A DNA stretch of 64,000 nucleotides, from NCBI GenBank assembly GCA_038252405.1, contig JBBSAJ010000009.1, positions 3,670-67,669 on the forward strand. The letters are read 5' to 3'. Under the pieces are notes generated by a model, which did not search any database, was not told where the DNA came from, and saw only the letters and a list, made by a program, of their open reading frames with translations. Shown here piece by piece: positions 6,533 through 53,111 of the stretch. The stretch's first letter is position 1. The number at the start of each line of letters is the position of its first letter. Origin of the DNA: Actinomycetes bacterium (GTDB lineage Bacteria; Actinomycetota; Actinomycetes; Prado026). A program made the position numbers and the translations under genes.

Positions 6533-7525
6533 GTGGGCGAGCCGCGGGAGCAGGGGGCGCGGACCCGGCTGTACCGGAGCGGGGTGCTGGCCGGGGAGAA
6601 CTTCGCAGTCGAGCAGATCAGCGAGTACCTGGCCGAGCCGGACACGGTGGTGTGGGTCGACCTGTGCGCGCCGGACGACGCCATCGTCGCGCTGGTGGCC
6701 GACGAGCTCAACCTGCACGACCTGGCCGTGGCCGACGCGGTGGCCCCCCTGCAGCGGCCCAAGCTCGACCGGTACGCCAACCACGCGTTCCTGAACGTCT
6801 ACGCGGTGAAGCTGGACCGGGTGACCGGGCGGCTGGCGCAGGCCGAGCTGTCGGCGTTCATCACGCCGAAGGCGCTGGTCACGGTCCGCAAGGACCCGGC
6901 GTTCGACATGGACGGCGTGGTGGAGCGATGGGACCAGTCTCCGGACCTGGCCCTCCACGGCGTCGGGTACCTGCTGCACGGGCTGCTGGACCACGTCGTC
7001 GACGGCCACTTCGAGGTCGTGCAGAGCCTGGACGAGGAGATCGAGAAGCTCGAGGACCTGCTGTTCGACGACGGGTCGCGCTCGAACGACGTGCAGCGGC
7101 GCAGTTTCGAGCTGCGCAAGAGCCTGGTCACCCTGCGCCGGGTGGTGCTGCCGATGCGCGAGGTGGTCAACTCGCTGATGCGGCGCGACCTCAAGGTGAT
7201 CAACGAGCCGATGGTCCCGTACTTCCAGGACGTCTACGACCATGTGCTGCGAGCGACCGAGTGGACCGAGTCGCTGCGGGACATGGTCACCACGATCCTG
7301 GAGACCAACCTGACCATCCAGGGGAACCGGCTCAACGTCATCACCAAGAAGGTCACCAGCTGGGCGGCGATCATCGCGGTCCCCACGGCGATCACCGGGT
7401 TCTACGGGCAGAACCTGCCTTACCCGGGGTTCGCGCACCAGAGCGGCTTCGTCGTCTCCAGCCTGCTCATCGTGGGGATGTCCGTCGGCCTGTACGTCAC
7501 CTTCCGGCGCAAGGACTGGCTGTAG
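6533..7525 (+). CDS. corA: CorA-family divalent cation transporter (GQN variant of the GMN motif)
   Basis: 330 aa with two C-terminal transmembrane helices and YGQNLPYPG at the CorA signature position. Confidence 0.75.
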   Translation: MGEPREQGARTRLYRSGVLAGENFAVEQISEYLAEPDTVVWVDLCAPDDAIVALVADELNLHDLAVADAVAPLQRPKLDRYANHAFLNVYAVKLDRVTGRLAQAELSAFITPKALVTVRKDPAFDMDGVVERWDQSPDLALHGVGYLLHGLLDHVVDGHFEVVQSLDEEIEKLEDLLFDDGSRSNDVQRRSFELRKSLVTLRRVVLPMREVVNSLMRRDLKVINEPMVPYFQDVYDHVLRATEWTESLRDMVTTILETNLTIQGNRLNVITKKVTSWAAIIAVPTAITGFYGQNLPYPGFAHQSGFVVSSLLIVGMSVGLYVTFRRKDWL

Positions 7526-10609: not shown

Positions 10610-12901
10610 GTGAAGAGGCTGTGCAGCCACTTCGAAATGCTGCTGTTCGCGCTCTCGCTGCTGCTGCTGGCCGCGGGAGCGCTGGCACACGCCGTCAGGG
10701 CGGCCCGGCTGGGCGACGCGTGCTGGACGGCCGACGCCACGCTCGGACTGGTCGTCTCGACGGGGTGGATGCTGGCCAGCCTGTGGCGCCACCAGCTCGG
10801 CGTCGACCTGATCGCCGTCCTGGCGCTGGCCGGGGCGCTGGCCGTGGGGGAGCCGTTCGCCGGTGCGGTCATCACCGTGATGCTGGCGAGCGGACGGCTG
10901 CTGGAGGCCAGGGCCGAGGCCAGGGCGCGCCGGGACCTCAGCCTGCTGGTCGAGCGGGCGCCGCGCACGGCGCGGCGGCTGCGGGACGGGACCATCACCG
11001 AGGTCCCCGTCGAGGATGTCGCCAGGGGGGACCAGGTCGTCGTCGGCCCCGGCGAGGTCGTCCCGGTGGACGGCCGGCTGCAGCAGCCGGGCGTGCTCGA
11101 CGAGTCGATGCTCACCGGCGAGTCGCTCCCGGTGGAGCGCGAGCCCGGCGAGGAGGTCCGCAGCGGTGCGGTCAATGCCGGGCCACCGGTCATCCTGGTG
11201 GCGACCGCGGTGGCCGCCGACTCGACCTACGCCCACATCGTGCGCCTGGTCGAGCAGGCCCAGGCGTCCTCAGCGCCGTTCGTGCGCACGGCCGACCGGT
11301 TCGCGGTCGCCTTCGTGCCGTTCACCCTGCTGCTCGCCGGGGCCGCCTGGCTGGCCGCGGCGGACCCGGTCCGGGCGGTCGCCGTCCTCGTCGTCGCGAC
11401 GCCGTGCCCGCTGCTGCTCGCGGCCCCGATCGCGATCATGTCCGGACTGTCCCAGGCCGCCCGGGTCGGGGTCGTGGTCAAGGGCGGCGGCGCGCTCGAG
11501 CGGCTGGCCGCCGGGCGGGTGCTGCTGTTCGACAAGACCGGGACGCTGACCCGCGGGCAGCCGGTCGTCGTCGAGGTGGTGGCGCCCGACGCGGCGACCC
11601 CGGCGGCTGAGCTGCTCCGGGTGGCGGCCTCGCTCGACCAGGTGTCTCCGCACCTGCTGGCCGGGGCCATCGTCGCCGCGGCCGGCGCGCGGGAGCTGCC
11701 CCTCGTCCTGCCGGAGCAGGTGGTCGAGCGGGCCGGCTACGGCATCGAGGGCGTCGTCGAGGGCCGCCGGGTGCGGTTGGGCAAGGTGAGCTGGGTGCTG
11801 CCGGGGGAGCTGCCCGGCTGGGCCCGCCAGGTGCGGCGCCGGGCCGCGCTGGACGGCTCGCTCACGGTGTTCGCCGCGCTGGAGGGGCAGCCGGCCGGAG
11901 CGTTCGTGCTCGAGGACCCGATCCGAGGCGACGCCCCACGGATGGTCCGGGCGTTGCGGCAGGCGGGGATCACCCGCACGGTGCTCGTCACCGGCGACCG
12001 CGCGGACGTGGCCGAGTCGGTTGGCCGGATGGTGGGCGTGGACGCCGTCCAGGCCGACCGAGACCCCGCGGACAAGTTGGCCGTCGTCGTGGCGGAGCGC
12101 GTGCACGGGCCGACGATCATGGTGGGGGACGGCGTCAACGACGCTCCGGCGCTGGCCGCCGCCGACGTGGGCGTCGCGCTGGCGGCGCGGGGGGCCACGG
12201 CATCGTCCGAGGCGGCCGATGTCGTCCTCACGGTCGACCGCATCGACGGGCTGGCCGACGCGATCCTGATCGCGCGTCGCTCCCGACGGATCGCACTGGA
12301 GAGCGTGCTGCTGGGCATGGGGCTGTCCCTCGTGGCCATGATCGCGGCGGCGCTGGGCCACCTCCCGCCGGCCGCCGGGGCGCTGCTGCAGGAGGTCATC
12401 GACGTGCTGGCGATCCTCAGCGCGCTGCGCGCGGTGCTGCCGGGGCAGCGGCACACGGTACGGATGGCGGTGGCCGACGCGGAGCTGACCGCCCGGCTGC
12501 AGGCCGAGCACCTGGCCACCCGGCCGATCGTGGAGGGGCTGCGGGACGTCGCCGACTCACTCGACCGCAGGGCAGGCGACCTCGCGCCGGTGCACGCTCT
12601 GATGGCCAGGCTGGACGCCGAACTGCTGCCGCACGAGTACGCCGAGGAGGCCGAGCTGGTGCCGCTGATGGCCCGGCTGCTCGGCGGGCCGGACCCGGTG
12701 GGCTCGCTCAGTCGCACCCACGCCGAGATCGACCACCAGGTGGCGCGGCTGCGCCGGCTGCTGGACGAGCTCGGGGACGCCGAGCCCGAACCGGAGGACG
12801 TGCTGGAGCTGCGCCGGGTGCTGTACGGGCTCTATGGCGTCCTGCGGCTGCACAACGCGCAGGAGGAGGAGAGCGTCTTCAGCCTGCTCGCCGATGCCTG
12901 A
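10610..12901 (+). CDS. P1B-5-type heavy-metal P-type ATPase with a C-terminal hemerythrin-like (HHE) domain
   Basis: DKTGTLT, TGD and GDGVNDAPAL motifs, with TPCP in the TM4-equivalent helix instead of CPC. There is no N-terminal metal-binding domain. The C-terminal ~150 aa carry H...HxxxE repeats. Confidence 0.75.
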   Translation: MKRLCSHFEMLLFALSLLLLAAGALAHAVRAARLGDACWTADATLGLVVSTGWMLASLWRHQLGVDLIAVLALAGALAVGEPFAGAVITVMLASGRLLEARAEARARRDLSLLVERAPRTARRLRDGTITEVPVEDVARGDQVVVGPGEVVPVDGRLQQPGVLDESMLTGESLPVEREPGEEVRSGAVNAGPPVILVATAVAADSTYAHIVRLVEQAQASSAPFVRTADRFAVAFVPFTLLLAGAAWLAAADPVRAVAVLVVATPCPLLLAAPIAIMSGLSQAARVGVVVKGGGALERLAAGRVLLFDKTGTLTRGQPVVVEVVAPDAATPAAELLRVAASLDQVSPHLLAGAIVAAAGARELPLVLPEQVVERAGYGIEGVVEGRRVRLGKVSWVLPGELPGWARQVRRRAALDGSLTVFAALEGQPAGAFVLEDPIRGDAPRMVRALRQAGITRTVLVTGDRADVAESVGRMVGVDAVQADRDPADKLAVVVAERVHGPTIMVGDGVNDAPALAAADVGVALAARGATASSEAADVVLTVDRIDGLADAILIARRSRRIALESVLLGMGLSLVAMIAAALGHLPPAAGALLQEVIDVLAILSALRAVLPGQRHTVRMAVADAELTARLQAEHLATRPIVEGLRDVADSLDRRAGDLAPVHALMARLDAELLPHEYAEEAELVPLMARLLGGPDPVGSLSRTHAEIDHQVARLRRLLDELGDAEPEPEDVLELRRVLYGLYGVLRLHNAQEEESVFSLLADA

Positions 12902-12927
12902 GCAGGCGGTGCGCGGGGGGAGTCGGG

Positions 12928-13431
12928 TCAGGCCTGGACGGCCGGGCGCGGGCGGGCGTCCGGCACGGCGGCCGGGTCCACGTCGAACCGGTCGAGCATG
13001 GCATCGCAGGCGCGTTCGAGCTCGTCGAGCTGGGCGCCGGACAACGCGTCGACCACCAGGTGGCGCACCATGTCGACATGCCCGGGCGCGGTCTCGACGA
13101 GCTTGGCGTAACCGGCGTCCGTGAGCACGGCGACGAAGCCCCGACGATCCTCCGGGCACGGGTCACGGCGCACCCAGCCGCGCTCCTCCAGCTTGGCCAC
13201 GGCGTGCGAGATGCGCGACTGCGAAGCGCTCGCGCGGGCAGCCAGCTCACTCATCCGCAGCTTGTGGTCGGGGGCCTCCGACAGCATGGCCAGCGTCCAG
13301 TACCCGAAGTGGGTCAGCTGCGCGTCCCGCTGCAGCTGGGCGTCCAGCGCCGACGGCAGCAGCGTCATGAGCGCGGCGAGCTTGCGCCAGGCCCTCTGCT
13401 CGTCGTCGGTGAGCCACTGGGTGCGCGTCAT
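12928..13431 (-). CDS. MarR family transcriptional regulator
   Basis: ATG 13431 is M13 of the track ORF, and the motif DPCPEDRRGFVAVLTDAG is present. It is divergent from the dioxygenase gene. Confidence 0.75.
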   Translation of the reverse strand: MTRTQWLTDDEQRAWRKLAALMTLLPSALDAQLQRDAQLTHFGYWTLAMLSEAPDHKLRMSELAARASASQSRISHAVAKLEERGWVRRDPCPEDRRGFVAVLTDAGYAKLVETAPGHVDMVRHLVVDALSGAQLDELERACDAMLDRFDVDPAAVPDARPRPAVQA

Positions 13432-13452
13432 GCTGGCCAGCGTAGCGTATAT

Positions 13453-13470
13453 TACTTGATTGTTCAAGTA
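13453..13470. promoter_or_regulatory. Perfect 7-4-7 palindrome TACTTGA-TTGT-TCAAGTA in an AT-rich island; candidate MarR operator
   Basis: It sits in the 95-bp divergent spacer between the marR-like gene and the LigB-type dioxygenase gene. This is the only AT-rich stretch in the region. Confidence 0.5.
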
Positions 13471-13525
13471 TCAGTCCGTACGGTGGTCGATGTTCTGCAC
13501 GAGGAGGCGCACACTGAGCCAGCCG

Positions 13526-14293
13526 ATGCCAGCCCTGTACCTGGGGCACGGGGCTCCGCCGCTGCTGGACGACGCGCTGTGGACCGCCCAGCTGGCTGCC
13601 TGGGCTGGCGCGCTGCCGCGGCCCACCGGGATCGTCATCGTGTCGGCGCACTGGGAGTCGGCGCCGCTGACCCTGAGCGCACCAGCCGCCGGGACGCCGC
13701 TGGTCTACGACTTTGGCGGCTTCGACGCGAAGTACCACCGGATGACCTACCGGACGCCGGACGCGACGGGGCTGGCCCGGCGGGTCGCCGCGATGATGCC
13801 GGACGACGAGGCGGTGCACGCGCACCCGAGCCGCGGCCTGGACCACGGGGCCTGGGTGCCGCTGAAGGTGATGTACCCCGACGCTGACGTCCCGGTGCTG
13901 CAGGTGTCGATGCCGACGATGGACCCGGCCCGGCTGATGGAGCTCGGCCACAGGCTGCGCCCGCTGCGCGCGGAGGGGGTGCTGGTCATCGGGTCCGGCT
14001 TCCTCACCCACGGCCTGCCGTTCCTGCGTGACTTCCGGGTGGACGCCGCCGCGCCCGGCTGGTCGGCGGACTTCGACGCATGGGCCGCGGACGCGTTCGC
14101 TCGCGGTGACGTGGACGAGGTCGCGGCGTTCCGCACCCGGGCGCCGGGCATGCCGTACGCCCATCCGACGGTGGAGCACTTCGCCCCGCTGTTCGTGACC
14201 CTCGGCGCCGCCACCGACCCGGGGGCCCCGCCGGCGCAGGTGATCGACGGGTTCTTCCTGGGGCTGGCCAAGCGGTCCGTCCAGGTCGCTTGA
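13526..14293 (+). CDS. extradiol ring-cleavage dioxygenase, class III subunit B (LigB/DODA/YgiD-like)
   Basis: ATG 13526 follows GAGGAGG. A LigB-family histidine-containing motif is present (SAHWES...HG). Confidence 0.7.
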   Translation: MPALYLGHGAPPLLDDALWTAQLAAWAGALPRPTGIVIVSAHWESAPLTLSAPAAGTPLVYDFGGFDAKYHRMTYRTPDATGLARRVAAMMPDDEAVHAHPSRGLDHGAWVPLKVMYPDADVPVLQVSMPTMDPARLMELGHRLRPLRAEGVLVIGSGFLTHGLPFLRDFRVDAAAPGWSADFDAWAADAFARGDVDEVAAFRTRAPGMPYAHPTVEHFAPLFVTLGAATDPGAPPAQVIDGFFLGLAKRSVQVA

Positions 14294-14341
14294 CCTGAGC
14301 GAAACACCGGTTGCATAGGCTGCGGCCATGGGGCCGAAGGC

Positions 14342-15853
14342 ATGACGGGGACGACGTCGGGTGGCGTGGGGCTGCGCTCGGAGCGGGGGCCGGTGCTGGC
14401 CGCCCTGATGCTCTCCATCGCGTTGGTGGCGCTGGACAGCACCATCATCGCCACCGCCATCCCGTCCATCGTGCGCGACCTGGGTGGCTTCTCCCGTTTC
14501 CCGTGGCTGTTCTCGATCTACCTGCTGACCCAGGCAGTCACCGTCCCGCTGTACGGCAAGTACGCCGACGTGATCGGCCGCAAGCCGGTGCTGCTGTTCG
14601 GGATCGGCCTGTTCGTGCTGGGGTCGGTGCTGTCCGGGTTCGCGTGGAGCATGACGGCGCTCATCGTGTTCCGCGGCCTGCAGGGGCTCGGAGCCGGTGC
14701 GGTGCAGCCGATCAGCATGACGATCGTGGGTGACCTCTACTCGGTCGCCGAGCGGGCCAAGGTGCAGGGCTACATCGCCAGCGTGTGGGGAGTCGCGTCG
14801 GTGCTCGGGCCCGCCCTCGGCGGGCTGTTCGCCCAGTACGGCTCCTGGCGCTGGATCTTCTTCGTCAACGTGCCGGTGGGCGCGCTCGCCGTGTGGATGC
14901 TGGTGCGCAACTTCCACGAGAACGTCGTCCACCGGGAGCACACGATCGACTTCCTCGGCGCGGCGATGCTCACCCTCGGGTGCTCGCTGCTCATCCTCGG
15001 CCTGCTCGAGGGCGGTGTCGCCTGGGGGTGGGGGTCGCCGCAGAGCCTGCTGGTGCTCGGCGGAGGGCTGGTCGCCGTGGTGGCCTTCGTCCAGGTGGAG
15101 CGGCGCGCGGTCGAACCGGTGCTGCCGCTATGGGTGTTCCGGCACCGCACCCTGGTCAGCGGCAACCTGGCCGCGATGATGGTCGGTGCCCTGCTCATCG
15201 GGCTCAGCTCCTACGTGCCGACCTACGTGCAGGGCGTGCTGGGCACCGGCGCGTTGGTGGCCGGGTTCGCGCTGGCCGCGCTGACGGTCGGCTGGCCGAT
15301 CGCCGCTGCGTTCTCCGGGCGGATCTACCTGCGGATCGGGTTCCGGGACACCGCTGTCATCGGCGGGGTCGTGGTCATCCTGGGCGCGGTGCTCGTGGCC
15401 CTGCTGACGGCGTCGTCGGCGGTGTGGCAGGTCGGGGCCGCCTGTTTCGTCGTGGGGGTGGGGCTCGGGCTGTCCAACGCGCCCATCGTCGTGGCGGTGC
15501 AGTCGGTGGTCGGGTGGGAGAGCCGCGGTGTGGTGACCGGCACCAACATGTTCAGCCGCTCCATCGGCAGCGCCGTCGGGATCGCGGTGCTGGGTGCCAT
15601 CGCCAATGCGACGCTGGCGAACCGCCTCGAGCACGTGCCGGCAGCCCTGCACGGCCGGCTGCCGGCCAATCCGGACGCCACCAGCCTGGTACTCGGTGGG
15701 CACACCGGGGAGCCGACGGCGGTGGCCGCCTTCCTGCGCGCGGCGCTGTTCGACGCCACCCATCACGTCTTCCAGTCCCTCGTGGTGGTCGCCGTCCTGA
15801 TGATGCTCGCGGTGCTGACGATGCCCCGCCGCACCCGCGAGATCGTCACGTAG
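14342..15853 (+). CDS. MFS transporter, DHA2 family (14 transmembrane segments)
   Basis: 503-aa polytopic MFS protein. Its TAG stop lies about 10 bp before MITE copy 4. Confidence 0.8.
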   Translation: MTGTTSGGVGLRSERGPVLAALMLSIALVALDSTIIATAIPSIVRDLGGFSRFPWLFSIYLLTQAVTVPLYGKYADVIGRKPVLLFGIGLFVLGSVLSGFAWSMTALIVFRGLQGLGAGAVQPISMTIVGDLYSVAERAKVQGYIASVWGVASVLGPALGGLFAQYGSWRWIFFVNVPVGALAVWMLVRNFHENVVHREHTIDFLGAAMLTLGCSLLILGLLEGGVAWGWGSPQSLLVLGGGLVAVVAFVQVERRAVEPVLPLWVFRHRTLVSGNLAAMMVGALLIGLSSYVPTYVQGVLGTGALVAGFALAALTVGWPIAAAFSGRIYLRIGFRDTAVIGGVVVILGAVLVALLTASSAVWQVGAACFVVGVGLGLSNAPIVVAVQSVVGWESRGVVTGTNMFSRSIGSAVGIAVLGAIANATLANRLEHVPAALHGRLPANPDATSLVLGGHTGEPTAVAAFLRAALFDATHHVFQSLVVVAVLMMLAVLTMPRRTREIVT

Positions 15854-16733: not shown

Positions 16734-17561
16734 TCAGCGGAGGCGGGTGGCCTGCAGGGTGTAGCTGAGCGGCAGCCGCCACGGGCGGTCCAGCAGCCGG
16801 TACTCGCCGTCGTCGCCGCGCTGCATCCGGCCGGGCAGCGCGTCCCAGGGCACGCTGTCGTGCTCGACCAGCGTGGTCAGCTGTAGGCCGGCGTCCCGCA
16901 GTGCGGTGACGGTCTCGCCGAGCCCGTGGTTCCACTCGTGGGTCTCGTTGTGCTCGAAGGTCGTGTCGGTCTCGACGTAGGTGCCCGGCTCGTCGAGGAC
17001 CAGTGGCTCGGGCCGCTCGAAGTAGGGGTAGTCGACGACGAGCAGACCGTCCGGGCGGGCGTCGTCCAGGGCCCAGAGCATCGGGTGGCCCTCGCGGAGG
17101 AACAGCCGCCCGCCGGGCCGCAGCAGCGCGGCCACGACGTCAGCCCACCGCCGCACCTCGGGCAGCCAGCACAGCGCGCCGATCCCGGTGAACACCAGGT
17201 CGAACGACGACGGCTCCAGCGCCTCGGCCGCCGCGTACACGTCGGACTCCACGAAGTCGACGTCCGCACCGCAGTCCTGGGCGAGCCGGCGGGCTTGGGC
17301 CAGCGAAGCCGCGGAGAAGTCGAGCCCGGTCATCCGCGCGCCCAGCCGGGACAGCGACACGGTGTCGGTGCCGATGTGGCACTGCAGGTGCACCCCGCGC
17401 AGGCCGGTGAGGTCCCCGAGGCGCGGCAGGTCGAAGCGCACCACGTCACTGACGAACGTCGGGTCCTCGACGAAGCGCGCGAAGGCGTACTCGGGGGACG
17501 CCGCGTGGGCGGGCGCGCGCTCGTCCCAGCTGGCCCGGTTCACCGCTCGGTAGTCGCGCAT
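16734..17561 (-). CDS. class I SAM-dependent methyltransferase
   Basis: ATG 17561 is M102 of the track ORF, and the SAM-binding motif LDFSAASLAQARRLA is present. Confidence 0.65.
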   Translation of the reverse strand: MRDYRAVNRASWDERAPAHAASPEYAFARFVEDPTFVSDVVRFDLPRLGDLTGLRGVHLQCHIGTDTVSLSRLGARMTGLDFSAASLAQARRLAQDCGADVDFVESDVYAAAEALEPSSFDLVFTGIGALCWLPEVRRWADVVAALLRPGGRLFLREGHPMLWALDDARPDGLLVVDYPYFERPEPLVLDEPGTYVETDTTFEHNETHEWNHGLGETVTALRDAGLQLTTLVEHDSVPWDALPGRMQRGDDGEYRLLDRPWRLPLSYTLQATRLR

Positions 17562-17601
17562 GAGCCCACCGTGCCACTTTCGTTCCCCGAGCGGACTCCC
17601 T

Positions 17602-17640
17602 GGGAACGTTATGCCCCCCGCAGGCGCCATAACGTTCTCC
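17602..17640. promoter_or_regulatory. Inverted repeat GGGAACGTTATG-N14-CATAACGTTCTCC in the hydrogenase operon leader; candidate operator
   Basis: It lies about 200 bp upstream of the first hydrogenase gene, inside a 280-bp leader that is shared divergently with the methyltransferase gene. Confidence 0.35.
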
Positions 17641-17841
17641 CCGCGTCCACTCGCGAGCGTGCTCCTCGAGGACTGGCCGCGTATCTGTGCCCGTCGGCTC
17701 GGGGGGCCCGTCACGCTCACTGGTGCTCCATTCGAGCCGGGTGCCGCAGGGGTGACGGGGGTCTCGTCGCCGCTGGGACCATTGGCACTCCCTGCGCCCC
17801 GCAGCCCCACCGAGGATGGAGCGCAGGAGGGCGAGGAGAGA

Positions 17842-18996
17842 ATGCCGACAGCGAGCGCACGCACCGGAGACCAGGTCGTTCTCGACGTGAGTGGCCTTCA
17901 GTCGCTGATCGACATCCTGCTCGCCGACGGCCGGACCGTGGTCGGCCCCACCGTGCGCGACGGCGCCGTCACCTATGCCGCGATCGAGAGCATCGAGGCG
18001 CTGCCGCGTGGGGTCGGCGACGAGCAGGACGCCGGCCACTACCGGCTGCGCGAGCGGGGCGACGGCGCCCTGTTCGGCTACGCCAGCGGCGCCCAGTCGT
18101 TCAAGCCCTGGCTGTTCCCGGCCCGGCAGCTGCTCTGGAGCGGGCAGCGCACGGCCGACGGCTTCACCATCGAACCCGCTGACACGACGCCACCGCGGCT
18201 GGCCCTGCTCGGGGTCCGCGGCTGCGACCTGCGGGCGATCGCCGTCCACGACCGGGTGCTCGGCTCGGCCGACCGGCCGGCCGCCGACGCCCACTACACG
18301 GCGGCCCGCGCAGACCTGCTGGTCGTCGCGGTGGCCTGCGCCGAGCCCTCCGGCACCTGCTTCTGCGCGTCGATGGGCACCGGTCCGCACCCCGGCGAGG
18401 GCGCCGACCTCGTGCTCACCGAGCTGGACGTCGGAACCGACCACCGCTTCCTCGTCGAGGTGGTCACCGAGCGCGGTGCCGCCGTCCTGGCCGCCGGTGT
18501 CCCTGTGCGGGGGGCCACCGACGGCGACCGCAGTGCGGCCGCGGCCGTCGTGGCCGACGCCACCGACCGGATGGGCCGCCAGCTTGACACCGACGGCCTG
18601 CGCGACCTGCTCTACGACCAGGCCGAGTCCCGGCAATGGGACGAGGTCGCGAGCCGTTGCCTGTCCTGCACCAACTGCACGCTGGTCTGCCCGACCTGCT
18701 TCTGCACGAGCGTGCGCGACGTCTCGGACCTGTCCGGCGAGAAGGCTGAGCGGTGGCGGGTCTGGGACTCCTGCTTCACCGGGGGCTTCTCCTACATCCA
18801 CGGCGGCAGCGTGCGCGAGACGCCGCGCGCCCGGTACCGGCAGTGGATGACCCACAAGCTGGGCGCCTGGCAGGACCAGTTCGGCTCGTCCGGGTGCGTG
18901 GGCTGCGGCCGCTGCATCGCCTGGTGCCCGGCCGCCATCGACATCACTGCGGAGGCCGCGGTCCTGCGGTCGGCCGCGCAGCCACGGGAGGGCTGA
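17842..18996 (+). CDS. hyhB: group 3b [NiFe]-hydrogenase beta subunit (AsrA-like iron-sulfur protein, two 4Fe-4S clusters)
   Basis: ATG 17842 follows GGAGGGCGAGGAGAG. Cys clusters CLSCTNCTLVCPTCFC and CVGCGRCIAWCP are present. Confidence 0.75.
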   Translation: MPTASARTGDQVVLDVSGLQSLIDILLADGRTVVGPTVRDGAVTYAAIESIEALPRGVGDEQDAGHYRLRERGDGALFGYASGAQSFKPWLFPARQLLWSGQRTADGFTIEPADTTPPRLALLGVRGCDLRAIAVHDRVLGSADRPAADAHYTAARADLLVVAVACAEPSGTCFCASMGTGPHPGEGADLVLTELDVGTDHRFLVEVVTERGAAVLAAGVPVRGATDGDRSAAAAVVADATDRMGRQLDTDGLRDLLYDQAESRQWDEVASRCLSCTNCTLVCPTCFCTSVRDVSDLSGEKAERWRVWDSCFTGGFSYIHGGSVRETPRARYRQWMTHKLGAWQDQFGSSGCVGCGRCIAWCPAAIDITAEAAVLRSAAQPREG

Positions 18997-18998
18997 CC

Positions 18999-19472
18999 AT
19001 GCGCACCATCGAGCAGCTGCTGCCCGACCACCCGTTCTTCACCGGGCTGGAGGAGCCGGAGCTCCGGCTGGTCTCCGGGTGCGCGACCAACGTGCACTTT
19101 CACCCCGGCGAGTTCCTGTTCAAGCAGGGCGGGTCCGCCGAGAGGTTCTTCATCGTGCGGCACGGGTCGGTCGCCATCGAGGTGCACAGTGCCGAGCGCG
19201 GCACTGTCGTCATCGACACCGTGGGGGACGGCGAGGTCATCGGCTTCTCCTGGCTGGTACCCCCGTACCGCTACGTGTTCGACGGCCGCGCGGTGGTGGA
19301 GACGAGCGCGGTCGCGTTCGACGGCACCTGCCTGCGCGGCAAGTGCGAGGACGACCCCCGGCTCGGCTACGCGCTCATGCAGCGGGTGTCCTCGGTGATG
19401 TACGAGCGCATGCAGGCCGCCCGGGTCCGGATGCTCGACATGTACGGGTCCCCCCGTGACCGCGCCCACTGA
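18999..19472 (+). CDS. cyclic nucleotide-binding domain protein (no DNA-binding domain) embedded in the hydrogenase operon
   Basis: 158 aa with a cNMP-binding fold (GEFLFKQGGSAERFFIVRHGSVAI). ATG 18999 follows GGGAGG. Confidence 0.65.
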   Translation: MRTIEQLLPDHPFFTGLEEPELRLVSGCATNVHFHPGEFLFKQGGSAERFFIVRHGSVAIEVHSAERGTVVIDTVGDGEVIGFSWLVPPYRYVFDGRAVVETSAVAFDGTCLRGKCEDDPRLGYALMQRVSSVMYERMQAARVRMLDMYGSPRDRAH

Positions 19473-20316
19473 CACCGCCGTCCAGCGGTCGGCCGGCCCG
19501 GCGCCGGACGCGATGGTGCCGCGGCCGTTCCGGGTGGTCGGCAACCGCCAGGACACCCGCGACACGGTCACCTTGACCCTCGAGCCGGTCGGTGGACGGC
19601 GGCTGGGCCACGAGCCCGGCCAGTTCACCATGCTCTCCGCGTTCGGGGTCGGCGAGGTGCCCATCTCGATCAGCAGTCCGGTGAGCGGGCCGCTGGAACA
19701 CACCGTGCGCGACGTCGGCGGGGTCACCCACACCCTGGTCCAGGCCCGCGAGGGCAGCATGCTCGGCGTCCGCGGCCCGTTCGGCACCGGCTGGCGGGCC
19801 GGCGACGGCAGGGGTGGCGACGTCGTGTTCGTGGCCGGCGGGATCGGGCTGGCCCCGCTGCGGCCGGCCGTGCTCGAGGTGCTCGCCGACCGCGACGCCT
19901 ACGGCCGGGTGGTGCTGCTCTACGGCACCCGTACCCCGGATGAGGTGCTGTACGGCCGCGAGCTCGAGCAGTGGCAGCAGCACGGGGTCGACGTCGAGGT
20001 GATCGTCGACTACGGGCCGCCGTCCTGGCACGGTCGGGTCGGCCTGGTCACCAAGCTGGTGCCCCGCGGCGGCTTCGACCCGGAGCGCACGCTGGCGCTG
20101 GTCTGCGGGCCCGAGGTCATGATGCGGTTCGTCGCCATCGCGCTCACCGACCGCGGGGTCGCAGCCGGTCGGATCCGGCTGTCCATGGAGCGCAGCATGG
20201 TCTGCGGCATCGGGCTGTGCGGGCACTGCCAGCTGCGCGAGCTGTTCGTCTGCGCCGACGGGCCGGTCTTCGACTACGACCGGCTGGTCCCGCTGCTCGA
20301 CCTGCGGGAGGTGTGA
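19456..20316 (+). CDS. hyhG: group 3b [NiFe]-hydrogenase gamma subunit (FAD/NAD(P)-binding, AsrB-like, C-terminal 2Fe-2S)
   Basis: GTG start overlaps the previous gene. Ferredoxin-reductase-type FAD/NAD fold with C-terminal CGIGLCGHC. Confidence 0.75.
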
Positions 20317-20317
20317 C

Positions 20318-21160
20318 ATGACAACCACCGCCGGCACCGGTTACAGCGGCTACGCCGGGCCCACCGACCACCGACCCACCCTGGCGGTCTGGAAGTTCGC
20401 CTCGTGCGACGGCTGCCAGCTGTCGGTGCTGGACTGCGAGGACGAGCTGCTCGCCATCGCCGACGCCGTGCACATCGCCTACTTCCCTGAGGCCACCCGG
20501 GCGGTGGTCGCCGGGCCGTACGACCTGTCCCTCGTCGAGGGGTCGATCACCACGGTCGGGGACGCCGAGCGGATCCAGGAGATCCGCAAGGTCTCCAGGA
20601 CGCTCATCACCATCGGGGCCTGCGCCACCAGCGGCGGCATCCAGGCGCTGCGCAACTTCGCCGATGTCGAGCAGTACCGCTCGATCGTGTACGCGCACCC
20701 GTCCTACATCTCCACCCTGGAGCGGTCCACCCCGATCGTCGACCACGTCCAGGTGGACGCCGAGCTGCGCGGCTGCCCGGTCGACAAGGGCCAGCTGCTC
20801 GAGCTGCTGGCCGCCTTCCTGCAGGACCGGCCGGCCCGGCTGGTCACCGACAGCGTGTGCACCGAGTGCAAGCGCCGCGGCGCCGTCTGCGTGGCAGTGG
20901 CCCACGGCACGCCCTGCCTCGGCCCGGTCACCCACGGTGGGTGCGGGGCGCTGTGCCCGGCCTTCAACCGGGGCTGCTTCGGCTGCTTCGGTCCGGTGCG
21001 CTCGGCCAACACGGCCTCGCTCGCCGACCGGCTGGTCGACCTGGGCATGCCCCAGCGGGACGTCGTCCGGTTCTTCCGCACCTTCAACGCCGGGGCCGAG
21101 GCCTTCAAGGACGAGAGCACCAGGCACGAGCAGCGCGAGGCGGAGGGGATCAGGCCGTGA
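20318..21160 (+). CDS. hyhS: group 3b [NiFe]-hydrogenase small (delta) subunit
   Basis: Cys ligands for the proximal, medial and distal clusters. RBS GGGAGG precedes ATG 20318. Confidence 0.75.
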
Positions 21161-22464
21161 CGCACAAGCTGACCGGCGACGGCCGGGTGCTGTCCGTCGA
21201 CACGCTGGCCCGGGTCGAGGGTGAGGGCGCGATGCACGTGCAGGTGCACGGCGGTGAGGTGACCGACGTCCAGCTGCAGATCTTCGAGCCGCCGCGGTTC
21301 TTCGAGGCGTTCCTGCGCGGCCGGGCGTACACCGAGCCCCCGGACATCACCGCGCGCATCTGCGGGATCTGCCCGGTGGCCTACCAGATGTCCGCCTGCA
21401 ACGCGATCGAGCAGGCCTGCGGGGTGGTCGTCCCCGAGGAGATCCGCCAGCTGCGCCGGCTGCTGTACTGCGGTGAGTGGATCGAGAGCCACGCCCTGCA
21501 CGTGTACCTGCTGCACGCCCCCGACTTCCTCGGCTACCCGGGTGTCGTGGAGATGGCCCGCGACTACCGTGAGCTGGTCGAGCAGGGGCTGCGGCTGAAG
21601 AAGGCCGGCAACCAGCTGCTCGAGCTGATCGGCGGCCGGGCGATCCACCCGGTGAACGTGAAGATCGGGGGCTTCTACCGGCTGCCCACGCCGGCCGAGC
21701 TGCGCGACTTCCGCCCCGTCCTCGAGCAGGCGCTGGCCGACTCGATCGCGACCGTCCAGGCGGTGGCCGGGTTCGAGACACCGGACTTCGAGCAGCCGTA
21801 CACCTATCTGTCACTGCGCCGCGAGGACGGCTACCCGCTGGAGTCCGGCTCGGTCGTCACGAGCACGGGGCTCGCGTTCCCGGTCGAGCGGTTCGACGAG
21901 CACGTGGCCGAGCAGCACGTCGAGCACTCGAACGCGCTGCACGCCTGGCTGCGCGGCTCCGGCCCGTACGTCGTCGGCCCGCTGGCCCGGTACTCGCTCA
22001 ACCACGACGTGCTCACCGACGTGGCCAAGGAGGCCGCGGCGGCGGCCGGGCTCGGCGACACCTGCCGCAACCCGTTCCGGTCCATCGTGGTGCGGGCCGT
22101 CGAGCTGGTGGAGGCCTGCCAGGTCGCGCTGCAGGTCGTGGACAGCTGGCGGGGCGCGCCGGCCGCGGCGGTGCCGGTCGAGCCGCGGGCGGGGGTCGGC
22201 TACGGCGGCACCGAGGCGCCGCGCGGGCTGCTCATCCACCGCTACCGGCTGGCCGAGGACGGCACCATCGAGGACGCCGTCATCATCCCGCCGACGTCAC
22301 AGAACCAGCCGAGCATCGAGGCGGACCTGCGCGGCTTCGTGCAGGACCGGCTGGACCTGCCCGACGACGAGCTGACCCGCCAGTGCGAGCAGGCCATCCG
22401 CAACTACGACCCCTGCATCTCCTGTGCGACCCACTTCCTCGACCTGCACGTGGACCGCGCATGA
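21157..22464 (+). CDS. hyhL: group 3b [NiFe]-hydrogenase large (alpha) subunit
   Basis: N-terminal L1 motif RICGICP and C-terminal L2 motif [13 protein letters not shown] overlap with the small-subunit gene. Confidence 0.8.
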
Positions 22465-22934
22465 CCCTCGTCATCGGTGTCGGCAACCCCGACCGCGGCG
22501 ACGACGGCGTCGGCCCGGCGGTGGCGGCCCGGGTGGCTGCGCTGGGGCTGTCCGGCGTCCGGGTGGCGCCGACCGTCGACCCGGCTCGGCTGATCGACGC
22601 GTGGGACGGCGAGTCGGACGTGGTCGTCGTCGACGCCGTCCGGGTGGGCCTCGGCGACGGCCCCCGCGTGGTCTCGCTGCGGGTCGACGAGCAGCCGCTG
22701 CCGGGCTGGGCCGCCTGCGGAGGCACCCACGCGTTCAGCGTGGCCTCGGCGATCGAGCTGTCCAGGGCACTGGGCCGGCTGCCCGAGCACCTCGTGGTCG
22801 TCGGGGTGGCCGGCTGCGACTTCAGCACCGGCCACGGGCTGTCGTCGGACGTGCGGGGCCGGATGGATGCCGCCATCGAGTCCGTACGGGCCGCCGTCCA
22901 CGGGGCCCACCCGACCCAGGGCGGGCCGGGCTGA
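22461..22934 (+). CDS. hydrogenase maturation endopeptidase (HyaD/HoxW family)
   Basis: ATGA overlap, and the N-terminal motif LVIGVGNPDRGDDGVG. Confidence 0.75.
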   Translation: MTLVIGVGNPDRGDDGVGPAVAARVAALGLSGVRVAPTVDPARLIDAWDGESDVVVVDAVRVGLGDGPRVVSLRVDEQPLPGWAACGGTHAFSVASAIELSRALGRLPEHLVVVGVAGCDFSTGHGLSSDVRGRMDAAIESVRAAVHGAHPTQGGPG

Positions 22935-23164
22935 TGTGCCTGGGCCGGATGTGCCGCGTCGTCGAGGTGCCCGGCGACGGGACGGTGGTCGTCGACGACG
23001 CCGGCCGGTCGCACCGGGTCGCCGCGGTGGCGCTGGCCCAGCCGCCCGTGGTGGGGGAGTGGCTGCTGGTCTACGCCGGGATCGCCCTCGAGCGGCTCGG
23101 CGAGCAGGAGGTGCGCGACACGCTCGCGCTGCGGAACGGCGAACGAGGAGAGGGACCGACATGA
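22934..23164 (+). CDS. hypC: HypC/HupF-family hydrogenase assembly chaperone
   Basis: 76 aa starting MCLG. ATGA overlap with the protease stop. Confidence 0.6.
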   Translation: MCLGRMCRVVEVPGDGTVVVDDAGRSHRVAAVALAQPPVVGEWLLVYAGIALERLGEQEVRDTLALRNGERGEGPT

Positions 23165-24078
23165 CGCGTCGAGCCGGGGTCGTCCTGGCGCTGGTCGCCG
23201 CCGCAGTCAGCGGCGTGGCGGTGTTCATCAACGCCTACGGGGTCAAGGCCGTGGGCGATGCCACCGTCTACACCACCGCCAAGAACCTGGTGGCGGCACT
23301 GCTGCTGGGCGCGGTCTTCGCCGTGTCGGTCGGCCGGCGTGAGCCGTCGGCTCGGCGGGCGCCGCGGACACCGCTGACCCGTGCGCAGCTGGCCGGGCTG
23401 GTTGCCATGGGCATCGGCGGCAGCGTGCCGTTCGTGCTGTTCTTCGAGGGGCTGCTGCGTGCGTCGTCGGTGCACGCCGCGTTCCTGCACAAGACGCTCG
23501 TGCTGTGGGTGGCCCTGCTCGCCGTGCCGCTGCTGAGGGAGCGGCTGACCTGGGCGCACGGGGTCGCGATCGGGCTGCTGCTGGTCGGGCAGACCGTGCT
23601 CGTGGGCGGCGTCGCCGAGTCGTTCGGCCCCGGCGAGGCGATGATCCTCGCGGCGACCATGCTCTGGGCCCTGGAGACCGTGCTGGCCAAGTGGCTGCTC
23701 GGCGGGCTGTCCTCGTGGACCGTCGGCGTGACCCGGATGGGCCTGGGCTCGCTCGTCCTGCTCGCCTGGGTCGGGGTGACCGGCCGGTTGGGCGCCCTGG
23801 TCGCCCTGGACGCCGCCCAGTGGGGCTGGGTGCTGCTCACGGGGGCAGTGCTGGCCACCTACGTCGGGCTGTGGCTGGCCGCGCTGGCCCGGGCGCAGGC
23901 CGTCGACGTGACCGCCGTCCTGGTGCTGGCCGCCGTCATCACCGCCGTCCTCGCGGCGCTGGTCAACGGGACGACGTTGCAGCCGGTCGGGCTGCTGCTC
24001 GTGCTGGCCGGTGGCGCGCTGGCCGCCGCCCGGCTGCGCCCGGCCGCCGGCGTCGCGGTCGACACGGCTGGGGCCTGA
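23161..24078 (+). CDS. DMT superfamily (EamA-like) transporter, 10 transmembrane segments
   Basis: ATGA overlap with hypC. Polytopic membrane protein. Confidence 0.6.
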   Translation: MTRRAGVVLALVAAAVSGVAVFINAYGVKAVGDATVYTTAKNLVAALLLGAVFAVSVGRREPSARRAPRTPLTRAQLAGLVAMGIGGSVPFVLFFEGLLRASSVHAAFLHKTLVLWVALLAVPLLRERLTWAHGVAIGLLLVGQTVLVGGVAESFGPGEAMILAATMLWALETVLAKWLLGGLSSWTVGVTRMGLGSLVLLAWVGVTGRLGALVALDAAQWGWVLLTGAVLATYVGLWLAALARAQAVDVTAVLVLAAVITAVLAALVNGTTLQPVGLLLVLAGGALAAARLRPAAGVAVDTAGA

Positions 24079-24084
24079 GCGGCC

Positions 24085-24849
24085 ATGGAGTCCGGCCCGC
24101 TGCTGTTCGCGCGTTTCGCCTACCCGCCGAACGCACTGGGCTACTGCGGTCCGGACGGCTCCGGCGAGCTGCTCGAGCGGACGGCGTCCGCGGACGGCGG
24201 CCAGGACATGCGCCGGCTGGCCCGCGGGTTCGAGGGCGCCTGGCCGTACCTGGAGCTGATCGCGCACGAGAACGGTCTGGGCGACCCACTCGACCCGCGC
24301 GTGGTGGAGGCGTACTGGATCGGCAACGGGCTGCTGGACCGGGTCCGCGGCCCGGCCTTCCGCGGCTCGCTCGAGGACCGGTTCCGGCCACGGGTGGGGC
24401 GTGCGGTGGGCCACGTGCTGGACCCGGTGGCCGGCGGCGGCGTGCCGCACCACGCGTTCCACGTGTTCGGGGTGTTCCCCTGGGTCGGGCTGCTGCGCGG
24501 CGGTGTTGTCGACGAGCCGCTGCGGGTGCTCGACCGGTGCCGGATCCGGTGGGCCCGGGTCGACGCGGTCGTCGGTGACCGCGCGGTGGTCCGGTCCCGG
24601 CCGCTGGAGTGGCGCGACGGGCGGCTGCTGCTCGGCGCGCCCGCGGTGGAGGAGGTCACGGTGGCCGAGGCGGGCCGCTCCCTGGCCGCGGGGCTGGCGC
24701 CCGGGGACCTGGTGGCCTGCCACTGGGACTGGGTGTGCACCCGGATCACCGTGGCCCAGGCCACCCAGCTGCGCCATCGGACCGCCCAGGTTCTCGCCGC
24801 CGTCCAGCCGGTCAGGGTGACGACGGCGTATACATCGTCGTCACCCTGA
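24085..24849 (+). CDS. conserved hypothetical protein (MESGPLLFARFAYPPNALGYCGPD...), a type I recall as associated with hydrogenase clusters in Actinobacteria
   Basis: 254-aa ORF. Its last codons and TGA stop lie inside palindrome P1. Confidence 0.4.
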   Translation: MESGPLLFARFAYPPNALGYCGPDGSGELLERTASADGGQDMRRLARGFEGAWPYLELIAHENGLGDPLDPRVVEAYWIGNGLLDRVRGPAFRGSLEDRFRPRVGRAVGHVLDPVAGGGVPHHAFHVFGVFPWVGLLRGGVVDEPLRVLDRCRIRWARVDAVVGDRAVVRSRPLEWRDGRLLLGAPAVEEVTVAEAGRSLAAGLAPGDLVACHWDWVCTRITVAQATQLRHRTAQVLAAVQPVRVTTAYTSSSP

Positions 24850-49522: not shown

Positions 49523-50209
49523 ATGCAGAACAGGCAGGAGCGGGCGCCGCGGGGCCTGCTCACGGCCGACGAGGTTCAGCAGCTCCTCGACATCGACCGC
49601 TCCACCATCTACCGGATGGCCGGCGACGGCCGGCTGCCGGCCGTGAAGATCGGCCGTCAGTGGCGGTTCCCGGCCGACCGGATCGCCGCGCTGCTCGAAG
49701 TCGGCACCCAAGCCCCGGCCGCGAACCCCGCGTTCGACACGACCTCGTCGCAGCCCCTGAGCCCGCCGCTGTCGGCCGAGCTCGCTGAGTCGGTGCTGGA
49801 CGTGGCCGCCGGTGCGCTGGACGTGATGATGGTCGTCACGGACATGACGGGGCGGCCGGTGACGAATGTGGTCAACCCGTGCGCCCGATTCGTCCACGAG
49901 TCCAGCGACCCCGCGACCCTGGCTGTGTGTATCGAGGAGTGGCGGCAGCTGGCTGACGACGTCCACTTCGAGTCCCGGTTCCGCCTCGGCCGCCTCGGTT
50001 TCGAGTGCGCCCGGGCGTTCATCCGGGTCGGCTCGGAGCTGGTCGGCATGGTGCTGGCCGGCGGTGTGGCCCCGGTCGGTGATGAATCCGGCGACCTGTT
50101 CCAGCTCGACCCCGGACGGCGCCAGCAGGTGCTGTCCACGCTACCCAAAGTGGCTGCGGCACTGTCTCGCGTTGCCACCCCGACGAAGGACCTAAGGAGC
50201 GCAGGATGA
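49523..50209 (+). CDS. transcriptional regulator: N-terminal excisionase/MerR-type HTH plus a C-terminal PocR-like sensor domain
   Basis: HTH LLTADEVQQLLDIDRSTIYRMAGDGRLPAVKIGRQWRFP. The C-terminal ~170 aa are PocR-like and carry 3 Cys. Alternative start GTG 49505. Confidence 0.55.
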   Translation: MQNRQERAPRGLLTADEVQQLLDIDRSTIYRMAGDGRLPAVKIGRQWRFPADRIAALLEVGTQAPAANPAFDTTSSQPLSPPLSAELAESVLDVAAGALDVMMVVTDMTGRPVTNVVNPCARFVHESSDPATLAVCIEEWRQLADDVHFESRFRLGRLGFECARAFIRVGSELVGMVLAGGVAPVGDESGDLFQLDPGRRQQVLSTLPKVAAALSRVATPTKDLRSAG

Positions 50210-51441
50210 AGCGACTGCTCGTGCTCGGCGGTGGAACCGCAGGCACGATGGCCGTGAACAAGCTGCGGCCGCGGCTGGCCCGCGACGAGTGGCAAATCAC
50301 TGTTGTCGACCCGAGTGACACGCACTACTACCAGCCCGGTTACCTGTTCGTCCCGTTCGGCATCTACCAGCCCGAGGAGATCGTGAAGCCGCGCAAGCGC
50401 TTCATCCCCGAGGGCGTCGACCTGGTCCAGGCCGAGGTCGACAAGGTCCTGCCGGAGGACAACAAGGTCCTGCTCGTCGGTGGCCAGGAGCTGCCGTACG
50501 ACTACTTGATCATCGCCAGCGGCACCACGCCGCGGCCGGACCAGACCCCCGGTATGGCCGATGACATGGGCGGCAGCGTCCACGAGTTCTTCAGCTACGA
50601 GGGCGCCAAGCGGCTGGCCGAGAAGCTGAAGACCTGGGAGGGCGGCAAGCTGGTCGTCCACCTGACCGAGATGCCGATCAAGTGCCCGGTCGCCCCGCTG
50701 GAGTTCAGCTTCCTGGCCGAGGCCTTCTTCACCGAGAAGGGCATGCGGGACCAGGTCGAGATCACCTACGTGACCCCGCTCGAGGGCGCGTTCACCAAGC
50801 CGGTGGCGTCCAAGCACCTGGGCGGCATGTTCGACGAGCGCAAGATCCAGCTCGAGGCCGACTTCATGATCGAGTCGATCGACCCCGAGGCCAAGAAGCT
50901 GGTCTCGTTCGACGAGCGTGAGGTGCCCTACGACCTGCTGGTCACCATTCCGATCAACATGGGCGCCGACTTCGTGGCCCGGTCCGGCCTCGGCGACGAC
51001 CTGAACTACGTCCCGGTGGACAAGGAGACGTTGCTCTCCAACGCCTACGACAACATCTTCGCGATTGGCGACGCGTCGAACATCCCGGCGTCCAAGGCCG
51101 GCTCGGTGGCGCACTTCTCGATGGACCTGTTCCCGGACAACTTCGTCAACCACATCAACGGCCGTCCGATGACCGAGAAGTTCGACGGGCACGCCAACTG
51201 CTTCATCGAGAGCGGGCACGGCAAGGGTCTGCTGATCGACTTCAACTATGAGACCGAGCCGCTCCCCGGCAAGTACCCGCTGCCCGGCGTCGGCCCCTTC
51301 AGCCTGCTGAAGGAGACCGAGATCAACCACTGGGGCAAGATGATGTTCCGCTGGATGTACTGGAACCTGCTGCTCCCCGGCAAGGAGCTCCCGCTGCCCG
51401 CCCTGATGTCGATGGCCGGGAAGCAGACGGAGGGCGAGTGA
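50206..51441 (+). CDS. sqr: sulfide:quinone oxidoreductase-like FAD-dependent pyridine nucleotide-disulfide oxidoreductase
   Basis: N-terminal LVLGGGTAGT FAD motif. Candidate redox cysteines lie in KCPVAPLE and HANCF. ATGA overlap with the regulator gene. Confidence 0.65.
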   Translation: MKRLLVLGGGTAGTMAVNKLRPRLARDEWQITVVDPSDTHYYQPGYLFVPFGIYQPEEIVKPRKRFIPEGVDLVQAEVDKVLPEDNKVLLVGGQELPYDYLIIASGTTPRPDQTPGMADDMGGSVHEFFSYEGAKRLAEKLKTWEGGKLVVHLTEMPIKCPVAPLEFSFLAEAFFTEKGMRDQVEITYVTPLEGAFTKPVASKHLGGMFDERKIQLEADFMIESIDPEAKKLVSFDEREVPYDLLVTIPINMGADFVARSGLGDDLNYVPVDKETLLSNAYDNIFAIGDASNIPASKAGSVAHFSMDLFPDNFVNHINGRPMTEKFDGHANCFIESGHGKGLLIDFNYETEPLPGKYPLPGVGPFSLLKETEINHWGKMMFRWMYWNLLLPGKELPLPALMSMAGKQTEGE

Positions 51442-52142: not shown

Positions 52143-52158
52143 GAAGGTTCGAACCACC

Positions 52159-52473: not shown

Positions 52474-52497
52474 CCACCGAGGACGGAGAAACAGACT

Positions 52498-53019: not shown

Positions 53020-53032
53020 CCCCCGCCTGAAC

Positions 53033-53076
53033 TTGTCAGGGTGAGGACGAGCTATAGCTCGTCCTCACCCTGACAA
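53033..53076. terminator. Palindromic hairpin P4 (TTGTCAGGGTGAGGACGAGC-TATA-GCTCGTCCTCACCCTGACAA), 20-bp perfect stem
   Basis: It lies 14 bp after the dsrE-like stop and shares the TGTCAGGGTGA core with P1-P3. Confidence 0.65.
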
Positions 53077-53111
53077 CTGTGCGGGGGCGGGCGGCTGAGA
53101 TAGTGAGCGCC

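Follow-up and report, generated by a model that had tools for sequence, protein, structure and literature searches.

The locus and its relatives

The stretch of contig JBBSAJ010000009.1 analysed here (64,000 nucleotides; hereafter, the window), which stems from an Actinomycetes bacterium, contains at 17842-24849 nine consecutive genes on the plus strand that encode the structural subunits of a [NiFe]-hydrogenase and a set of accessory proteins. With high confidence, we read these genes as one operon for a cytosolic, bidirectional enzyme of group 3b, equipped with an accessory partner that adopts a cyclic nucleoside monophosphate (cNMP)-binding fold and with a dedicated maturation tail. Hydrogenases of group 3b are common among soil and sediment bacteria, in which they are believed to serve as redox valves under hypoxia. 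The core of the locus is an ordinary member of this group, and earlier papers have described its five-gene core architecture. Absent from the literature searched are the nine-gene actinobacterial operon, the breadth of conservation of the cNMP-fold gene and its missing cyclic-nucleotide contacts, and a HypC-like DUF6390 protein with constant HypC and transporter neighbours. The accessory genes are moderately interesting, and the locus is thereby raised above routine annotation to a moderately interesting lead.

Seven intact open reading frames (ORFs) on the plus strand occupy 17842-23164 and encode, in order, the beta subunit, a cNMP-fold protein, the gamma, delta, and alpha subunits, an endopeptidase, and a HypC-like protein. 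An initial annotation of this DNA had listed the same genes, and ORF calls and Pfam searches reproduced its order and coordinates exactly. The six junctions measure +2, -17, +1, -4, -4, and -1 nt, so that each is overlapping or no wider than 2 nt, as had been claimed. The seven genes of the annotated operon are therefore borne out, and its end at 23164 is not. The HypC-like gene overlaps the following gene, which encodes an EamA-family permease, by 4 nt (ATGA), and a gap of 6 nt separates the permease gene from a gene of the DUF6390 family. Because these two junctions continue the tight pattern, all eight junctions being overlapping or at most 6 nt, the operon reaches 24849 and comprises nine genes. 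A convergent hydrolase gene on the minus strand ends at 24841 and closes the transcription unit after DUF6390. A ribosome-binding site of the GGAGG type precedes the start codon of beta, and the predicted alpha and beta proteins are identical to the public gene calls, start codons included. In the window, GC content is about 0.72-0.76, and GC at third codon positions (GC3) exceeds 0.9 in real genes.

The operon was compared with 80 related loci gathered on the basis of alpha, 74 of which hold both beta and gamma. The nine-gene block recurs in other Actinomycetota: three independent contigs (L082-L084), reached by way of DUF6390 homologues, carry the identical order, with DUF6390 53-57% identical and neighbourhoods that are otherwise unrelated. 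EamA and DUF6390 both lie downstream in 13 of the 80 loci. The closest species-representative locus (L001), a metagenome-assembled genome of Actinomycetota with 85% alpha identity, has an operon (11346-15500) that stops after the endopeptidase gene and lacks HypC, EamA, and DUF6390; its surroundings contain none of the flanking genes of the window. Even close relatives thus differ in the accessory tail and in chromosomal position. Since the flanks are not conserved and L001 is without the tail, we regard HypC, EamA, and DUF6390 as an accessory module of one actinobacterial sub-lineage.

Core subunits and assignment to group 3b

The reference for the core comparisons was Pyrococcus furiosus sulfhydrogenase I (SHI; HydBGDA), for which a cryo-electron microscopy structure exists (PDB 9nez, chains A-D; also 9e15). 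SHI and the cytosolic [NiFe]-hydrogenase of T. kodakarensis (5yxy) consist of the same four core subunits, align over their full length, and share the cysteines of the Ni-Fe and Fe-S centers. For all four core subunits of the window, SHI is the top PDB match, with full-length alignments and aligned cysteine motifs; the N-terminal residues 1-116 of beta are unaligned with the archaeal enzymes. The archaeal SHI-type enzymes have no cNMP-fold protein, and the window adds the HypC paralogue, EamA, and DUF6390.

The large catalytic subunit alpha (435 aa; 21157-22464, plus strand) matches PF00374 (NiFeSe_Hases). Its best PDB match, SHI alpha (7e-76), is followed by Mvh of group 3c (2.5e-53), the Hydrogenophilus soluble hydrogenase (SH) of group 3d (2.7e-41), Frh of group 3a (about 1e-40 or weaker), and group 1 enzymes (1e-33 or weaker); C. 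necator HoxH is 27% identical to it. Among the NCBIfam models, ShyA and HydA rank on top with 288 and 276 bits, compared to about 149 for FrhA/VhuA. The two leading scores fall under their equivalog cutoffs; we assume that these models were fitted to the archaeal enzymes. The L1 motif RICGICP (Cys69/72) and the L2 motif DPCISCATH (Cys420/423, His426), both reported in the initial annotation, are present and aligned to those of SHI alpha, with both CxxC ligand pairs of the Ni-Fe site intact. Nine residues, FLDLHVDRA, form the C-terminal tail after the L2 motif.

The remaining core subunits follow the same pattern. The small subunit delta (280 aa; 20318-21160, plus strand; PF01058 Oxidored_q6; NCBIfam ShyD/HydD) has SHI delta as its best PDB match (1e-37), and its cysteines for three [4Fe-4S] clusters, namely those of the proximal cluster and all eight of the distal and medial clusters, occupy every cysteine position of SHI delta. 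The beta subunit (384 aa; 17842-18996, plus strand), an AsrA-like Fe-S electron-transfer protein of the HyhB/HydB type, matches PF17179 (Fer4_22, 5e-33), the NCBIfam ShyB/AsrA/HydB models (about 1e-34), and SHI beta (9nez_B, 5.5e-31), with two successive CxxCxxCxxxCP motifs aligned. The AsrB-like gamma subunit (286 aa; 19456-20316, plus strand) is of the HyhG/HydG type and carries a site for flavin adenine dinucleotide (FAD) and NAD(P) as well as a [2Fe-2S] motif; it matches PF00175 (NAD_binding_1), PF10418 (DHODB_Fe-S_bind), and SHI gamma (9nez_C, 2.3e-39), and its C-terminal CGxGxCGxC...C motif is aligned. A check for missing key cysteine ligands found none: the Ni-Fe and Fe-S cysteines all align with those of SHI.

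The beta and gamma subunits together make up a diaphorase module, as recognized by Pfam and by their best matches to SHI beta and gamma, and such a pair of AsrA-like and AsrB-like proteins is the hallmark of group 3b. We accept the assignment of the initial annotation to this group because of the SHI best matches of all four subunits, the NCBIfam ranking, and the presence of this pair. Two points weigh against it: the assignment is a best-match comparison against PDB and NCBIfam rather than a HydDB classification or a placement in a reference phylogeny, and the coupling to NADP is suggested by homology, the specificity for NAD or NADP not being readable from sequence. The annotated label of a four-subunit architecture holds for the core and proves too small for the operon, which has a conserved fifth gene for the cNMP-fold protein and two further genes downstream.

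Judging from homology and the conserved ligands, the Ni-Fe site of alpha would be where H2 is cleaved or formed. The electrons would run via the three [4Fe-4S] clusters of delta, and then via the Fe-S clusters in beta, to reach the [2Fe-2S] cluster and FAD of gamma. By homology, gamma would then exchange electrons with NAD(P)(H). A different use of the same core is conceivable, in which the enzyme works as a sulfhydrogenase or (poly)sulfide reductase instead of an NAD(P)-linked H2 valve, and the AsrA-like beta subunit is the site where sulfur compounds receive the electrons of H2 or NAD(P)H. Beta and gamma are indeed homologous to AsrA and AsrB of anaerobic sulfite reductase, and the archaeal prototype, named "sulfhydrogenase" in 9nez, reduces S0 in vitro. 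Furthermore, genes for Pyr_redox_2, DUF1641, and DsrE_2 proteins are located at 50.2-53.0 kb of the window, and in L082 the same nine-gene operon has DsrE_2, DsrC, and Pyr_redox_2 genes at a distance of one gene on its downstream side. However, the sulfur genes of the window are 26 kb away, none stands beside the operon in L083 or L084, and the siroheme subunit AsrC is absent. The bacterial model enzyme, moreover, is induced by oxygen limitation (PMC2799521), and group 3b enzymes have been reported to link the oxidation of NAD(P)H with the formation of H2 (PMC13332983). We therefore consider a sulfur-reducing role improbable and retain the NAD(P)-linked reading.

A conserved cNMP-fold protein between beta and gamma

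The gene at 18999-19472 (plus strand) encodes a stand-alone protein of 157 aa with a single PF00027 domain (47 bits). It is the conserved fifth gene of most bacterial group 3b operons: 67 of the 74 loci that hold both beta and gamma carry a cNMP-fold gene between them, and in all 67 the order beta, cNMP-fold, gamma, delta, alpha is kept. These loci span Actinomycetota, Acidobacteriota, Chloroflexota, Ignavibacteriota, Bacteroidota, Planctomycetota, Nitrospinota, Pseudomonadota, and other phyla, and the gene is also found in plasmid records of Burkholderia and Paraburkholderia.

The PF00027 match, an AlphaFold2 (AF2) model, and Foldseek searches agree on the eight-stranded beta-roll of the cyclic-nucleotide-binding (CNB) fold. 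The model, with a mean predicted local distance difference test score (pLDDT) of 89, comprises the beta-roll and a long C-helix (residues 120-149). Its best Foldseek match is 3mdp (template modeling score, TM, 0.91), followed by CRP and GlxR; protein kinase G (PKG) is also among the matches. The nearest structure, 3mdp, is that of Gmet_1532 from Geobacter metallireducens, an uncharacterised structural genomics target. It shares with the cNMP-fold protein a PY(H/R)Y segment in place of the phosphate-binding cassette (PBC), and it is without the two C-terminal conserved cysteines.

To what extent the fold retains its ligand can be gauged from an alignment of 69 family sequences with the CRP sequence in the E. 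coli MG1655 record. The equivalent of CRP Gly71 is kept in 69/69. In place of CRP Glu72 stands Trp in 59 of the sequences and Phe in the window protein, the Arg82 equivalent is variable (Val in the window), and the Ser83 equivalent is Phe. As such, the cassette Glu and Arg, which in CRP contact the ribose and the cyclic phosphate, are absent from the family alignment. What the family conserves instead is a signature of its own, GWSWLxPPYRWxFDARA and CLRxKCExD, and three cysteines, Cys28, Cys111, and Cys116, in 59, 56, and 64 of the 69 sequences. With the canonical contacts missing, the annotated label "cNMP-binding" is to be taken as a statement about the fold, not about a ligand.

Might the protein still be a genuine cAMP- or cGMP-responsive transcriptional regulator of the operon? 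Its PF00027 match is above threshold, its near folds include CRP and GlxR, the Joint Genome Institute (JGI) calls it a "CRP/FNR family transcriptional regulator," and a Frankia study calls the gene a "small transcriptional regulator" (PMC11879354). Against this stand the replacement of CRP Glu72 by Trp or Phe and of Ser83 by Phe, together with the lack of conservation at Arg82. In addition, Pfam detects no helix-turn-helix (HTH) or other DNA-binding domain in the 157 aa, the sequence ends after the C-helix, and the top 120 homologues are likewise all stand-alone proteins, of 153-160 aa or slightly longer. Given the missing HTH and the short homologues, we take the protein not to be a transcription factor. 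A gene embedded between two structural genes in 67/74 loci, and translationally coupled to them, would also be atypical for a regulator. We give this explanation little credence and favor, as set out below, a partner of the enzyme itself.

The gene has been noted in three of the works searched, none of which studies the protein itself. Frankia synton-4 (Francci3_4500-4495), Rhodococcus equi 103S, and "Methylosinus acidophilus" 29 share the order beta, cNMP-domain, gamma, delta, alpha, protease (PMC11879354; PMC13332983; PMC12319191), and the protease is the only maturation gene reported in these papers. The R. equi paper notes a cNMP-domain protein in the 3b cluster (PMC13332983), and the methanotroph paper labels the gene "HoxI" (PMC12319191). 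Neither the regulator label nor the HoxI label is supported here. HoxI belongs to the group 3d SH of C. necator (HoxFUYHI2). It, too, is a CNB-fold protein that stands alone and measures about 160 aa; its gene is part of a soluble hydrogenase operon, and the protein is a loosely bound extra subunit of the enzyme (PMC3189943; PMC12319191). It differs in that its gene follows hoxW, its enzyme belongs to another hydrogenase group, it keeps the PBC Glu, and it is without the three conserved cysteines. Orthology was rejected, as the pairwise similarity to C. necator HoxI (21% identity over 94 aa, E 1e-7) is at the level of the domain only.

The position of the gene and the precedent of HoxI nevertheless suggest for the cNMP-fold protein a role as accessory or regulatory partner to the diaphorase half formed by beta and gamma, functionally like HoxI. 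It might sense a ligand other than cAMP or cGMP, or the redox state via its three conserved cysteines. The comparison with M. smegmatis Hyd3/Hyh (MSMEG_3931-3927) is instructive in this regard. This actinobacterial 3b enzyme has the same order of beta, gamma, delta, alpha, and protease genes, with no cNMP-fold gene between beta and gamma and no HypC-EamA-DUF6390 tail listed for the cluster, and it is induced by oxygen limitation (PMC2799521). Since Hyd3 and the archaeal enzymes (9nez, four subunits) lack the gene and are nonetheless active, the cNMP-fold protein must be dispensable for catalysis. In the literature searched, Hyd3 is the only bacterial 3b enzyme with physiological data, and it is thus an enzyme without the cNMP-fold gene found in 67/74 loci. 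Should the cNMP-fold protein act as a subunit or as an allosteric switch, present models of how these enzymes are regulated would be incomplete.

The predicted maturation tail and its transporter

The last four genes of the operon are predicted to constitute a dedicated maturation set. The first encodes a large-subunit C-terminal maturation endopeptidase (157 aa; 22461-22934, plus strand; PF01750 HycI; TIGR00072 at 86 bits, cutoff 47), which would trim the nine-residue tail of alpha. The second encodes a putative chaperone of the HypC family (76 aa; 22934-23164, plus strand) that starts with MCLG; it passes PF01455 (HupF_HypC) with 46 bits (cutoff 28.5), while its TIGR00074 score of 38.6 lies under the cutoff of 48. 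At about residue 48, it has Tyr (LLVYAGIAL) in place of the His of nearly all relatives (VLVHxGFAL); Gln or Glu stands there in two other loci. It appears to represent a divergent branch of the family, one that accompanies operons of this type. Our prediction is that this HypC paralogue and DUF6390 act on the large subunit or on its metal cofactor.

The general maturation machinery, HypABDEF, would be encoded elsewhere in the genome. As the initial annotation had stated, the window carries none of it: tblastn of C. necator HypA/B/D/E/F against the 64-kb window gave no match at E <= 0.01, and Pfam scans of 40 flanking genes of the window detected no hypA/B/D/E/F. Such a hyp-free neighbourhood is normal for this operon type, because hyp genes occur within 10 kb in only 22/80 related loci and Frankia 3b clusters normally depend on the hyp genes of other clusters (PMC11879354). 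The idea that the locus is a silent or decaying cluster, unmaturable because the organism is devoid of HypABDEF, could draw on the empty 64 kb, the Tyr of the HypC paralogue, and the pseudogenes of some Frankia 3b clusters (PMC11879354), but is very improbable given nine intact ORFs with strong coding GC3 bias and conserved ligands, the rarity of nearby hyp genes among relatives and the Frankia precedent just cited, and a source contig that, at 89.9 kb, is part of a larger genome.

The third gene of the tail encodes a permease of the EamA/DMT family (305 aa; 23161-24078, plus strand) with two PF00892 domains. PF00892 is its only match, with no membership in the NiCoT, Nik, HupE, or Cbi families. 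It is kept in the same position in 13 related loci and in L082-L084. As it takes the slot that a Nik-like ABC importer occupies in other lineages, it is a candidate nickel or metal-chelate permease. We hold this idea with low confidence, because nickel transporters have conserved metal-binding motifs of His, Asp, or Cys in their transmembrane helices, and no His or Cys is invariant among 18 orthologues of the permease.

DUF6390, a candidate maturation factor

The last gene of the operon (24085-24849, plus strand) encodes a DUF6390 protein of 254 aa (PF19927, 3.8e-91). The family counts more than 3,500 homologues and goes unmentioned in the literature searched; no solved structure matches it by sequence, and one JGI record names a member "hydrogenase maturation factor." According to an AF2 model (pLDDT 88), the protein consists of an all-alpha domain (1-152), a beta-barrel (154-220), and a C-terminal helix. 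Its top Foldseek match in the PDB is T. kodakarensis HypC (2z1c_B; probability 1.0, TM(target) 0.67), at an E-value of 0.03 that is weak. An hhalign comparison with a HypC alignment places residues 155-229 on HypC residues 5-64 (E 7e-6) at a probability of 84.5%, below 95%. In its register, the invariant Cys152 and His213 of DUF6390 fall on Cys2 and the conserved His (His51) of HypC.

The C-terminal domain thus probably shares the beta-barrel-plus-helix fold of the HypC/HupF/HybG chaperones, and we describe it as HypC-like without filing it as a member of the HypC family. Unlike that of HypC, the DUF6390 cysteine is internal, located behind an all-alpha domain of 150 residues with further invariant Cys and His. 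Across two DUF6390 clades that are 36-60% identical, C21, H123, H126, C152, H213, and C218 are invariant. A HypC gene precedes DUF6390 in 23 of 23 loci inspected; in all loci examined, DUF6390 accompanies a separate HypC gene and never replaces it, and a transporter gene is its constant neighbour. The HypC-like domain with its Cys and His equivalents, the preceding HypC gene, and the adjacent transporter lead us to propose DUF6390 as a candidate new maturation factor. It is very probably maturation-related, and it probably binds metal.

The neighbours of DUF6390 differ among lineages. In a distant clade from Armatimonadota, Firmicutes, and unclassified bacteria, the order is HypC, DUF6390, SBP_bac_5, and two permeases, the last three having NikA and nickel ABC permease models as their top NCBIfam matches. 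A HypC-DUF6390-NikA-like-permease module is found in L086-L088 within group-1-like clusters (with a 625-aa large subunit and a NifU-Rieske fusion protein) and in L089 (8760-13186) with no hydrogenase structural gene within 9 kb. L034 combines DUF6390 and the Nik-like arrangement in a group 3b cluster that also has hypA.

From these elements a broader proposal can be assembled, to which we grant somewhat less than an even chance. DUF6390 may be an undescribed [NiFe] maturation factor that combines a HypC-like docking domain with an all-alpha Cys/His domain and that, jointly with its own HypC paralogue and a neighbouring transporter (EamA or a Nik-like ABC system), provides the large subunit with metal or inserts it, serving at least two hydrogenase groups (3b and group-1-like). 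The cNMP-fold protein, in turn, may be a true fifth subunit of most bacterial 3b enzymes that senses a signal other than a cyclic nucleotide. Several observations weigh against the roles that we assign to the accessory genes. Fusions to beta or gamma, which would hint at physical contact, are absent from the top 120 homologues of the cNMP-fold protein, and Hyd3 and the archaeal enzymes do without its gene. L001 has no tail at all, the HypC paralogue of the window has Tyr at the site of the conserved His, and the maturation competence of the organism would depend on hyp genes outside the window. The permease is devoid of an invariant His or Cys, the HypC-fold match of DUF6390 carries the low figures given above, and the Nik-like proteins of the distant clade score 154-159 bits versus an NCBIfam cutoff of 393. 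Still, the link of DUF6390 to HypC and metal-transport genes is a directly testable lead on the maturation of some hydrogenases, and it may help the heterologous expression of NAD(P)H-regenerating hydrogenases.

Upstream region and flanking genes

A divergent intergenic region of 279 bp (17563-17841) separates the operon from a methyltransferase gene on the minus strand that starts at 17562. It contains an imperfect inverted repeat at 17588-17653, with 31-nt arms that are 74% complementary and the core AACGTTATG once per strand. Within the window the core is found only there. A conserved operator role was rejected, as the core is absent upstream of all related operons; the repeat could be a lineage-specific operator. 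A promoter scan found no sigma-70-like promoter, and its one terminator-like match (17558-17574), upstream of the operon start, was within chance expectation. Rfam and tRNA scans of the window gave no matches.

The flanking genes for a P1B-5 ATPase, CorA, MarR, a major facilitator superfamily (MFS) protein, a methyltransferase, and a hydrolase do not travel with the operon, being absent from related loci except for the P1B-5 gene of L065. The window revealed no gene for a canonical nickel transporter (NiCoT, Nik, HupE). A divalent-cation channel of the CorA family is encoded at 6533-7525 (plus strand; PF01544, 1e-59), and CorA proteins can also carry Co2+ and Ni2+. At 10610-12901 (plus strand), 5 kb upstream of the operon, lies the gene of a P-type ATPase with P1B-5 features, namely, TPCP in a predicted metal-binding helix, DKTGT, and a C-terminal hemerythrin domain. 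L065 holds a homologue, 67% identical, about 2.4 kb from its operon, and the other loci hold none. P1B-5 ATPases have been tied to Ni2+/Fe2+ transport in a review (PMC13460109). Farther downstream, a sulfur-trafficking-like set of Pyr_redox_2, DUF1641, DsrE_2, and DUF3817 genes (50206-53432, plus strand) stands out by a GC content of 0.66-0.68, as opposed to 0.72-0.76 elsewhere.

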